Positions 2,177 to 28,684 of a stretch of DNA of 28,684 nt are shown one piece after another. Below the pieces are notes generated by a model. The model searched no databases, had not been told where the DNA came from, and saw only the letters and a list, made by a program, of their open reading frames with translations. The position numbers were made by a program, and so were the translations under genes. Numbering within the stretch: position 1 is the stretch's first letter; every line of letters begins with the position of its first letter. The DNA is from a virus. Taxonomy: Duplodnaviria; Caudoviricetes. Location: IMG/VR virus record IMGVR_UViG_3300037309_000132, positions 1 to 28,684 of that record; one strand, 5' to 3'.

Positions 2177-2851
2177 ATGGCTGGTGTTGTCGCCCAAAGG
2201 GTCAAAGACCTGATGCGAACCAAGGGGTTTTCGCAGGATGCGCTCGCGACGAAGGTGGGGATCAAGCAGCCTTCGATTGCCAGGTTGCTCGCCGGAGACG
2301 TTCGAAATCCACGCTATTTGCCCGAAATCGCCCGCGCGTTGGGCACGACCGCCGATTATCTACAGGGCGAAACCGACGACCCTTCGCTGAATTTGGGCGA
2401 CCGGCGTCTTGCATGGCATGGCCCGCCGGTCAGTGATGACCGGACAATCGAAATCCCGGTGATTGATCTGGCCTATGGGATGGGCGGCAGCTATCTGGAG
2501 AACGTCGATCCCGATGCGATCCGCGAGCCGTTCCCGCTTTCGTTCATCCGGCGCTACACCAAGGCGCGGGCTGAAGACCTGGTGATTGCCGATGGTCTGG
2601 GCGATAGCATGTCGCCGACAATCGGATCGAACGACCAACTGCTGATCGACCGTTCGCTGGACACCTTGCGAGTTGCCGATCAAATCTGGTGTTTCAGTTT
2701 CGGCGGGGTCGGCATGGTCAAACGCCTGCGCCCGCGCCCCGATGGCAGCATTGCAATCCTGTCCGACAATCCATTAGTTCCCGAAGACCGCGCGGTCGAT
2801 GATGAACTGTTTCTAATTGGGCGAGTGGTCGCCATTGTAAGGAAGGTCTGA
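2177..2851 (+). CDS. cI: CI-like repressor (XRE HTH plus S24 autopeptidase)
   Basis: SQDALATKVGIKQPSIARL HTH; GDSMSPTI (catalytic Ser) and MVKRL (catalytic Lys); start at 2177 or 2138. Confidence 0.93.
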   Translation: MAGVVAQRVKDLMRTKGFSQDALATKVGIKQPSIARLLAGDVRNPRYLPEIARALGTTADYLQGETDDPSLNLGDRRLAWHGPPVSDDRTIEIPVIDLAYGMGGSYLENVDPDAIREPFPLSFIRRYTKARAEDLVIADGLGDSMSPTIGSNDQLLIDRSLDTLRVADQIWCFSFGGVGMVKRLRPRPDGSIAILSDNPLVPEDRAVDDELFLIGRVVAIVRKV

Positions 2852-3351
2852 TGAACGAGAAGAAACTCTCCCTTGTTGCTGGGGTCTGTCTGTTGCTGGC
2901 GGGATGCGGCCAGTCTGGTGAAACGGTCAGCAATATTCCTGATGATGAACCCAGCGTTGTGGCGCGGGAAGCGTTGGACGCCGCCGGAATAGCCGAGGCT
3001 CTCAAAAAAGCGGGGTTGCCCGTTGAAAGCATCACCATCCTGACGGAGGCGACAGACGAGAACAAAATGATGGGGCGTCCAGGGCTTTACACCAGCAAAG
3101 TCTTTTTCATCGACGGTCGCCACAAAGGCGAGGGGATGGAGCCTAACGAGCAAAACACAGTCGAAGTATTTGCGAGCGAAGAGGATGCGACCCGTCGCCG
3201 CGAGTATATCGAAGGGGTGACTAAGGAAATGCCGATGTTTACACAATATATTATTCAATCCGGCCAGACACTTGTTCGGCTCGACAAGTCGCTCACGCCG
3301 AACGAAGCCAAGGAATACGAAGCCGCCTTGGAAAAGCGTGAACAGAAATGA
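2851..3351 (+). CDS. Lipoprotein, candidate superinfection-exclusion or lysogenic-conversion factor
   Basis: MNEKK + hydrophobic stretch + LAGC lipobox; TGATG coupling to cI. Confidence 0.8.
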   Translation: MNEKKLSLVAGVCLLLAGCGQSGETVSNIPDDEPSVVAREALDAAGIAEALKKAGLPVESITILTEATDENKMMGRPGLYTSKVFFIDGRHKGEGMEPNEQNTVEVFASEEDATRRREYIEGVTKEMPMFTQYIIQSGQTLVRLDKSLTPNEAKEYEAALEKREQK

Positions 3352-10169: not shown

Positions 10170-10532
10170 ATGTTTCTGACCGGCGCGCTCGTTCTGGCCT
10201 GCACCATCACGGTGATTGATGGCGACACCATCCGTTGCGGTGGCGAGCGCATCCGTTTGACCGGGATCGATGCGCCCGAATTGTCGCGCTGCCCAACCGG
10301 GCGGCAATATGTCAAGGGCGACGGGCAGGCGGCGAAGCACGCGCTGGCGAACCGCCTTGATCGCGGCGAAATCACGATTCGGCGGTTCGGGCAAGATCGC
10401 TATGGCCGGACGCTGGCGGCGGTCTATGTCGACGGGGTGAACGCGGCCTGCGCGATGCTGGCGGGTGGCCATGCGGAATATGTCGCGCAGTGGGATGAAG
10501 GCCAGCGGGTCGCGCGCGATTGTGGGATTTAG
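10170..10532 (+). CDS. Thermonuclease (SNase-like) family protein
   Basis: VIDGDT, RLTGIDAPE and DRYGRTL catalytic motifs. Confidence 0.9.
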   Translation: MFLTGALVLACTITVIDGDTIRCGGERIRLTGIDAPELSRCPTGRQYVKGDGQAAKHALANRLDRGEITIRRFGQDRYGRTLAAVYVDGVNAACAMLAGGHAEYVAQWDEGQRVARDCGI

Positions 10533-27847: not shown

Positions 27848-27890
27848 GTCCGCGATCGATGGCGACGCGGCACGGCCCTTCACCCGACCC

Positions 27891-27930
27891 CGCGCGCCGC
27901 GGACGCCCCCACGCCCCGCCTGCTTCTTTT
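27891..27930. other. cos-like cohesive-end region
   Basis: GCGCG-CCGCGGACGCCCCCACGCCCCGCC-TGC downstream of Q resembles the C-rich P2/phiCTX cos pattern (from memory). Confidence 0.55.
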
Positions 27931-27999
27931 TCGAATGAAGTTATCCATTGGGGACGGGTGGCGCTTCATCTGTGGGTGGGGGGTATGTGCGGCGAAGGC

Positions 28000-28240
28000 A
28001 TAACATTCCTAACCTGCCCCTTCGAGCGCCCAGAAAAGCCCGGAATTCCGCCATTTCTGAAGTTAGGGTTGAGGCATTATCTGACATAATATTTTTTGGG
28101 TCTTTTCATTACATCATTGATTTTACGAGCTTCTTTGATCGGGAAAAATTAGAGTGGAGAGACACAATCTGATTATAAGGATATTAGGAAATTATTATGT
28201 CATAACACATTGTAATAAAACGAATGTTAGGAATGTTGGG
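28000..28240. other. AT-rich region with nested inverted repeats (origin-like)
   Basis: AACATTCCTAAC (28002-28013) / GTTAGGAATGTT (28226-28237); TGACATAATA (28082-28091) / TATTATGTCA (28193-28202); several TTAGG-like units. Confidence 0.55.
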
Positions 28241-28300
28241 CGTTTCCCGCGCATACCCAGAATTGCTGGAAGGCTAACGGGTTTCTGCGGTTTTTTCATG

Positions 28301-28335
28301 AAAGAGCCCGGCCACGCTGGGAAGCGCGCCGGGCT
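28301..28335 (-). terminator. Hairpin downstream of the -RIAA stop
   Basis: AGCCCGGC (28305-28312) / GCCGGGCT (28328-28335) with inner CGCT-GGGA-AGCG; CTTT follows on - strand. Confidence 0.5.
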
Positions 28336-28365
28336 GGTTTGTCGTTTCGGAATTATCCGCCGGGG

Positions 28366-28492
28366 TCAGGCGGCGATGCGCAGTGTATGCTTTCGAGCAA
28401 ATCGTGCTCCCGCAACCAGCTTTACCTGACTCGCGTGCGAGCGGCAGTTTGATTGCGCTTCAGCGCATTTGACCAATTCCTGGACTTGCTGA
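28366..28492 (-). pseudogene. C-terminal fragment of a putative (serine) recombinase, cut off by the IS
   Basis: Open frame QQVQELVKCAEAQSNCRSHASQVKLVAGARFARKHTLRIAA*; LVAGA is the antisense tRNA 3'-end signature recalled from C-termini of tRNA-targeting recombinases. Confidence 0.5.
28398..28418 (+). other. att-like site: tRNA-fMet 3'-end fragment
   Basis: CAAATCGTGCTCCCGCAACCA versus CAAATCCTGCCCCCGCAACCA recalled for alphaproteobacterial tRNA-fMet (19/21); no tRNA body upstream; local dyad GAGCA-N5-TGCTC. Confidence 0.7.
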
Positions 28493-28684
28493 TGGTCTGA
28501 GCCCGAAGTTTCTACCCGCTACGAGTAGAGCCTTTGGCCGTTGTGATGCCCATCGCCGGGCGTGATGGCAACAACCGTATTGGGGGCATGCCCCCAATAC
28601 GGTTTGCCGATTTACCCCGTCCCCATTCCGCCGGGGTTCGGTTCCCGAGGCTCGAGTGGGGCCGGAAGTGGTTGTAGTCGTGCC
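28493..28684 (-). mobile_element. IS3-family (IS407-group-like) element, right end with transposase C-terminus
   Basis: - strand HDYNHFRPHSSLGNRTPAE motif; terminal IR-like TGGTCTGAGCCCGAAGTTTCTACCC starting with TG at 28493. Confidence 0.85.
28573..28604. repeat. Perfect 32-bp palindrome
   Basis: AACCGTATTGGGGGCA|TGCCCCCAATACGGTT, no spacer. Confidence 0.95.

Follow-up and report, generated by a model that had tools for sequence, protein, structure and literature searches.

Integrase genes that run across their own attachment site have been reported before, the integrases of Mx8 and SSV both extending across attP (PMC4383910, in the text available). In Mx8, attP lies inside int and integration makes a new 3' end, a switch that, according to the accessible part of the source, changes specificity (PMC6070905). 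Among serine integrases, DsiB of Dehalococcoides overlaps attL and has a divergent C-terminus; the available portion of that report raises possible regulation and proposes no degron (PMC3146451). A related principle acts on a repressor in mycobacteriophage BPs, where an ssrA-like tag on the repressor is lost by way of attP and the integrase bears a signal of its own (PMC4557955, as far as the accessible sections go).

The locus described here resembles Mx8 in having attP within the integrase gene and a new 3' end on integration, but the Mx8 enzyme is a tyrosine recombinase affected in activity and specificity, whereas here the enzyme belongs to the large serine recombinases and what is exchanged resembles a proteolysis signal. 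DsiB differs in that its target is ssrA and its setting is islands, while here the element is a prophage in tRNA-fMet and the AA end is conserved. In BPs and the phages of clusters G, I, N and P it is the repressor that is switched, the integrase tag remaining unswapped; here the integrase itself would be switched. These comparisons extend to what the available parts of the three papers cover. With other large serine recombinases the system shares the Resolvase, Recombinase and Zn-ribbon domains and attP arms that are symmetric around a 2-bp centre. In the model enzymes Bxb1 and phiC31, attP lies outside the integrase gene. Listings from a literature search that excluded most subscription literature and Mageeney et al. 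2020 (regulated gene integrity) include no report of a serine integrase that exchanges a degron, and searching the accessible text of PMC12884075 by term gave nothing on that subject. The sequence evidence set out below supports well an attR with a swap of the integrase tail, and we consider it probable that an Ile-Ala-Ala ClpXP tag is thereby switched on after excision and off after integration. If true, the recombinase would alter its own half-life by acting on its own gene, a minimal feedback loop that would unite two separately known ideas, the tail swap of Mx8 and the degron removal of BPs.

The window (the whole stretch of DNA analysed, 28,684 nucleotides) is an entire virus record and carries, by domain matches, a P2-like portal, terminase, ogr and a cI/cro pair. 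Its features are as follows.

1 to 28418, no strand assigned: P2-like prophage (cro/cI, ogr, tail, capsid, terminase, portal), from domain matches and a gene order as in the prophages of G006 and G211
28305 to 28335, minus strand: conserved hairpin, terminator-like with a weak U-tract, 30 nt past the stop, from shuffle folding and relatives
28366 to 28419, minus strand: free-form (attP) 3' end of a large serine integrase gene, LVAGARFARKHTLRIAA-stop, which the lysogen retains at attR, from translation, the attP contig and relatives
28384 to 28391, plus strand: P-arm motif, an inverted copy of the integrase-side arm motif, encoding tail residues H-T, from the window against the loose end of the attP contig; symmetric and co-varying in relatives
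28398 to 28418, plus strand: tRNA-fMet 3' fragment without a tRNA body, attR core region, from ARAGORN, translation, the attB contig and relatives
28407 to 28424, no strand assigned: 18-bp block of identity between attP and attB with the predicted crossover dinucleotide at 28407-28408, from the branch points of three junction contigs and the arm symmetry centre in related elements
28419 to 28492, no strand assigned: host-side DNA that lies downstream of the tRNA-fMet gene in the empty site, from the attB contig (28407-28436) and a 145-nt contig (28407-28551)
28493 to 28684, minus strand: end of a multi-copy IS3-family element (transposase C-terminus) and contig break, from an rve_3 match, loose ends and high depth

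The initial annotation had described a tRNA-fMet-like 3' end lacking a tRNA body, an antisense tail frame and a following hairpin, and translation, ARAGORN and shuffle folding bear this out. Positions 28398-28418 agree at 18/21 nt with the tRNA end in the attB contig and in relatives, ARAGORN finds 0 tRNA genes in the window, and the minus frame from 28419 to 28369 translates to LVAGARFARKHTLRIAA with the stop TGA at 28368-28366. An Rfam scan of the window gave nothing relevant, its one chance match falling on the palindrome of the IS, a perfect 32-bp palindrome (28573-28604) inside the transposase C-terminal frame. The IS3-family end begins at 28493 (rve_3, E 6e-6; loose ends of 3 contigs). 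The cI gene (2138-2851) is 25 kb from the att site, so attP is not inside the repressor gene, and the cI/cro pair is intact in the window and separate from the integrase. No integrase is present among the window ORFs examined; by comparison with relatives, the left end, which would carry the integrase and the tRNA, lies off the contig together with several kb of missing early region.

Junctions were read from the contigs of one public run (X1), a possible or probable source of the window. These contigs branch at the att spot, where the 28-kb contig stops at 28424. A 42-nt contig covering 28395-28436 represents attR; a second 42-nt contig, made up of 28395-28424 plus 12 other bases that read antisense as D-C-M-L-K, represents attP; and a third, in which the tRNA T-arm is joined directly to 28407-28436, represents the empty attB. 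Because the T-arm adjoins the host side in the attB contig and the attP contig goes on differently, the contigs identify the site as the attR of a P2-like, Erythrobacter-type prophage in tRNA-fMet, and the 74 bp from the core to the IS as host-side DNA rather than part of the phage integrase. The D-C-M-L-K of the attP contig matches the integrase ends of three related loci (L031, L032 and L101), and by this match the contig joins the RIAA tail to the C-terminus of a large serine integrase. Thus the recombinase frame that the initial annotation expected to join the tail is found as an integrase-like continuation, and, of the two options it gave for the site, attR of this prophage is borne out. 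Both recombination products, attP and empty attB, are present as contigs, which points to free or tandem attP DNA in the run; attP may stem from a tandem double prophage. Contig depths are 15.7 (attR), 4.2 (attP) and 9.6 (attB), values not usable as cell fractions.

Two other readings had been offered for this site, namely that the IS3 element disrupted the integrase of an attP that has not recombined, or that this is an attR beside an older integrase element that now wears the tail. Their appeal lies in a host-side frame that runs QVKL into VAG, as four integrase homologues do, and in an attP/attB identity that extends 6 nt beyond CCA in the junction contigs. Against this, the T-arm stands directly before host DNA in the attB contig, which largely refutes the IS-hit attP, and the attP contig proceeds into an integrase-like end; the older element is left with a likeness of QVK only, since 980/1000 shuffles score as high against integrase C-termini as the 24 host-side residues do, a result with which an eroded relic is compatible. 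Taken as a pair, these readings are most improbable. An exact search with a 22-nt stretch of the window found no match among the viral contigs, and the 43-aa window frame, a weak test as a query, found no longer homologue.

The window's own integrase is visible only as 5 C-terminal residues in one 42-nt contig, and neither its gene nor the attL junction was recoverable from the run contigs; the full arrangement can be seen in related prophages. Among 30 portal-related viral loci, four have the same core behind the portal, all with an AA-ending tail. In four distinct related prophages the integrase lies at the tRNA end and finishes in VAGVGFEPTTFRL, and attR carries a tail that ends in AA. In G002 the tail stands at one end and the other end holds a complete tRNA-Met gene, into which runs a 546-aa recombinase with this same ending; the attL/attR pairing recurs in Erythrobacter sp. 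EC-HK427 (G006) and in G211, with ends about 37 kb apart, and in G007 both att ends are found, on separate contigs. A fragment of the target gene at one end and an intact target with the integrase at the other are thus found in G002, G006 and G211. The initial annotation had expected tRNA-fMet and a recombinase at the left end of the prophage, which holds in these three relatives; for the window itself, whose attL was not recovered, we infer the left-end layout from the attR, attB and attP contigs. Of the window proteins tested, 12/17 match the att-bounded prophages of G006 and G211, with order kept. The integrase of these relatives has 545-546 aa and ends at the tRNA, in G006 as the last gene of the cro-oriented run, and the Resolvase, Recombinase and Zn-ribbon domains in two paired relatives (L031 and L101) place it in the serine family.

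As judged from the attP contig and the paired relatives, recombination gives the integrase one of two C-termini in turn, a tail ending in AA or one read antisense from the tRNA, as the initial annotation had proposed. Like Mx8, the system has attP within int, a tRNA target and a new C-terminus upon integration. The free-form tail is also present in L002, L004, L006, L114 and L124, and its predicted RIAA ending stands. The earlier prediction of the lysogen form needs one correction: the tail of the window's element is predicted to read VAG-V-GFEP(TTFRL) rather than VAG-A-GFEPATFRL, because the attB contig has a V-encoding tRNA variant, one common to L031, L032 and L101. The crossover codon directly after VAG would then be Ala in the free form and Val in the lysogen.

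The position of the crossover can be predicted from the attP arms. The two attP arms of five pairs, comprising 4 distinct sequences (2 pairs identical), were compared, and inverted arm symmetry at 16-25 bp is strongest around a single centre, with 36/50 matches against 26 at the next offset. In the window this centre falls on the two opening bases of the attP/attB identity block, 28407-28408, which are the predicted crossover dinucleotide. Both attP arms have changed together in G211, a co-variation. Distal inverted motifs are typical of serine-integrase attP sites, and the P-arm motif at 28384-28391 is likely the binding site of the zinc-ribbon domain. This constraint on the DNA arm motif can account for two conserved stretches of residues, H-T in the tail and C-M-L in the integrase body. 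The L-R-I-A-A-stop lies 25-41 bp from the centre, outside the symmetric motif, and the DNA constraint does not explain it.

Integrase tails were surveyed in two sets of homologues. The first comprised the best 120 of 1907 homologues, from which 9/120 rows (fragments, over-long or without a VAG/VAE anchor) were dropped, and the remaining 111 were placed in a FastTree phylogeny. Tails were tRNA-derived in 66/111 and free-type in 45/111. Every integrase of the family has two natural C-termini and database entries mix both, which matters for mining serine integrases as tools and for att-site annotation. Of the free-type tails among these best 120 of 1907, 19/45 end in AA, 11 in RV and 4 in RI, 26/45 being other than AA. 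The clade nearest the window's phage has AA in 13/14 free-form tails, with one CA, six further AA rows lie on three other branches, and two clades have RV/RI (again among the best 120 of 1907); these tallies are of sequences that share ancestry, not of independent trials. Internal AA occurs in 1/509 dipeptides of the first-set tails, background AA precedes 57/2302 stops and 8/140 long-ORF stops (2.5-6%), and in the other two antisense frames the AA end is found at none of 9/9 sites. In related loci the Ala codons vary among GCC, GCT, GCA and GCG and all three stops are used, and unrelated tails of 25-38 residues still end in AA (L081, L134 and L138).

The second set comprised the best 120 homologues of the integrase of Rhizobium phage RR1-A, of Rhizobiales type; 22/120 rows had no anchor, and 7/43 att rows, tRNA-derived or cut short, were set aside by eye. 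The free RR1-A integrase ends FVA, and 14 AA plus 8 VA give 22/36 free-type tails among these best 120, with no acidic residue at the final two positions in 43/43. These tails have a different sequence, another tRNA target and variable length. A related recombinase of Microcystis phage Mae-JY29, which has no VAG anchor, was left out. The enrichment of -AA that the initial annotation had anticipated is thus seen in both surveys, and by these tail sequences -AA is strongly enriched in the free-form tails of the clade.

Wider scans indicate that the AA end is limited to clades. Among the matches listed from a metagenome pattern scan, non-tRNA sites ended in AA at 1/109 and in VA at 1, and conserved tails ended RHV, WV or KAV. 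In 401 Sphingomonadaceae-family genomes, 3/9 sites were AA-ending, as were 8/62 loci in viral contigs, a count in which several repeat loci already counted and many matches are phage tRNA genes. Other tail families at tRNA-Met att sites (L140-L259 and L037-L093) end ELRKAV, ITRHV, ISAWV, KQRVKLT or LPFRIK and may represent further degron classes used in other hosts. Ends in the non-AA clades are non-polar and often basic, which would presumably fit a second ClpX signal class or another function.

The model of a free-form relative (P0005) is confident to about residue 510, with pLDDT below 50 over 512-549, so that the integrase tail is likely disordered and accessible; low pLDDT is here taken as disorder in a monomer model without DNA, which is compatible with tail packing in a synaptic complex. 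A different role for the swap is conceivable, in which it is real and chiefly alters recombination activity or directionality, for example through tail contacts with the coiled-coil or a directionality factor, degradation being secondary. Mx8 offers a precedent (PMC6070905, in the part available), clade tails keep a pattern of ~8 residues, and several clades have RV/RI rather than AA. However, the tail is of low confidence in the P0005 model, its middle is accounted for by the DNA arm motif, and tails that differ widely in length and sequence converge solely on their last two residues. We regard this explanation as very unlikely.

The ending itself matches the host. In Caulobacter, a terminal Ala-Ala is described as a typical ClpXP signature, and Asp-Asp stabilises a substrate (PMC4470285, in the accessible text). 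The tmRNA tags of 3/3 host-type genomes end LAA or IAA, that of Erythrobacter being IAA, and the free-form tail end copies this tag, with a free C-terminal AA/VA. The Ile-Ala-Ala end of the free form is thus likely a ClpXP degradation signal. The end that derives from the tRNA is dictated by it and has no terminal Ala, unlike the host tmRNA tag, and the lysogen tail is predicted to be without a degradation mark. A true degron need not make a switch, since both forms could be unstable, or the lysogen form could be barely expressed against convergent tRNA transcription, with the overlap saving space and supplying a stop and terminator. Lysogen tails end FRL, RGL or QGL, non-polar at the last residue in all, and a terminal Leu could likewise be a protease signal; the BPs integrase, moreover, has an unswapped proteolysis signal (PMC4557955, in the text available). 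The contrast between a free-form end that copies the host tag and a tRNA-fixed end that does not makes this account unlikely.

Under the proposed degron switch, an incoming or excised phage would make a short-lived, ClpXP-tagged integrase, and integration would occur only if integrase synthesis outran the protease, as with many phages per cell or with busy or inactive ClpXP. ClpXP is cell-cycle regulated in alphaproteobacteria. In the prophage, the integrase would be untagged and longer-lived, available upon induction for excision with a putative directionality factor. Excision would then bring back the tag and the hairpin, so that new integrase would be tagged and re-integration in lytic growth limited. 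An element that arrives later and integrates in this tRNA would put its own tail onto the integrase of the resident element. Full integrase frames running into such tails occur, among the matches listed, at 6 HMM-confirmed metagenome loci, as free attP or in a tandem array. Changing AA to DD would be a two-residue test of proteolysis control over lysogeny in alphaproteobacteria. More tentatively, and with somewhat less than even confidence, the system may belong to a widespread serine integrase family whose own recombination toggles a host-matched degradation tag (AA/VA in alphaproteobacteria, basic-hydrophobic elsewhere), in which protease capacity or cell-cycle-gated ClpXP would set lysis-lysogeny at integration and newcomers would tag and silence the resident integrase.

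Right behind the AA tail of L028 (8763-8874, the same as L047), three tRNA-Met 3' cores follow at 51-bp spacing, each with VAG antisense, and look like stacked att remnants. Two viral records (one holding L041 and L093, the other L059 and L064) have two att cores each, and in each record a long open frame (577 and 386 codons) lies before one core and runs into a tail; these may be tandem elements, with one integrase wearing the tail of its neighbour. At L269 (G397:C1, about 2014300-2017600), two integrase-like matches lie on opposite strands around a single core with no nearby tRNA gene, the joined frame giving a 32-residue tail that ends LAA, possibly an inverted duplication or an invertible segment.

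The hairpin at 28305-28335 has a z of -2.8, 2/200 shuffles folding equally well. Across 3-4 relatives, 93.6% of cells are paired with 1 double-sided change, a result that does not beat shuffles, and a terminator scan of the window did not call it. Behind the portal lies a conserved non-coding block (27885-28260) that consists of a GC-rich motif, which we take to resemble cos, and, after it, short repeats in an inverted array with an AT-rich centre and arms at 27981-28013 and 28226-28258. It is also found in P2-like relatives beside other tRNAs (L010, L014, L018 and L019) and is therefore not att-specific; it may be a packaging site or origin. At the opposite end of the window, a low-complexity ORF of Gly-Ser and Gly-Tyr-Gly-Asp repeats (1-333) stands right behind the DUF6948 gene, and the contig breaks within it. 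A staphylococcal-nuclease-like gene in the tail cluster (10170-10532) and a lipoprotein-like gene behind cI (2851-3351) are possible accessory or exclusion genes.
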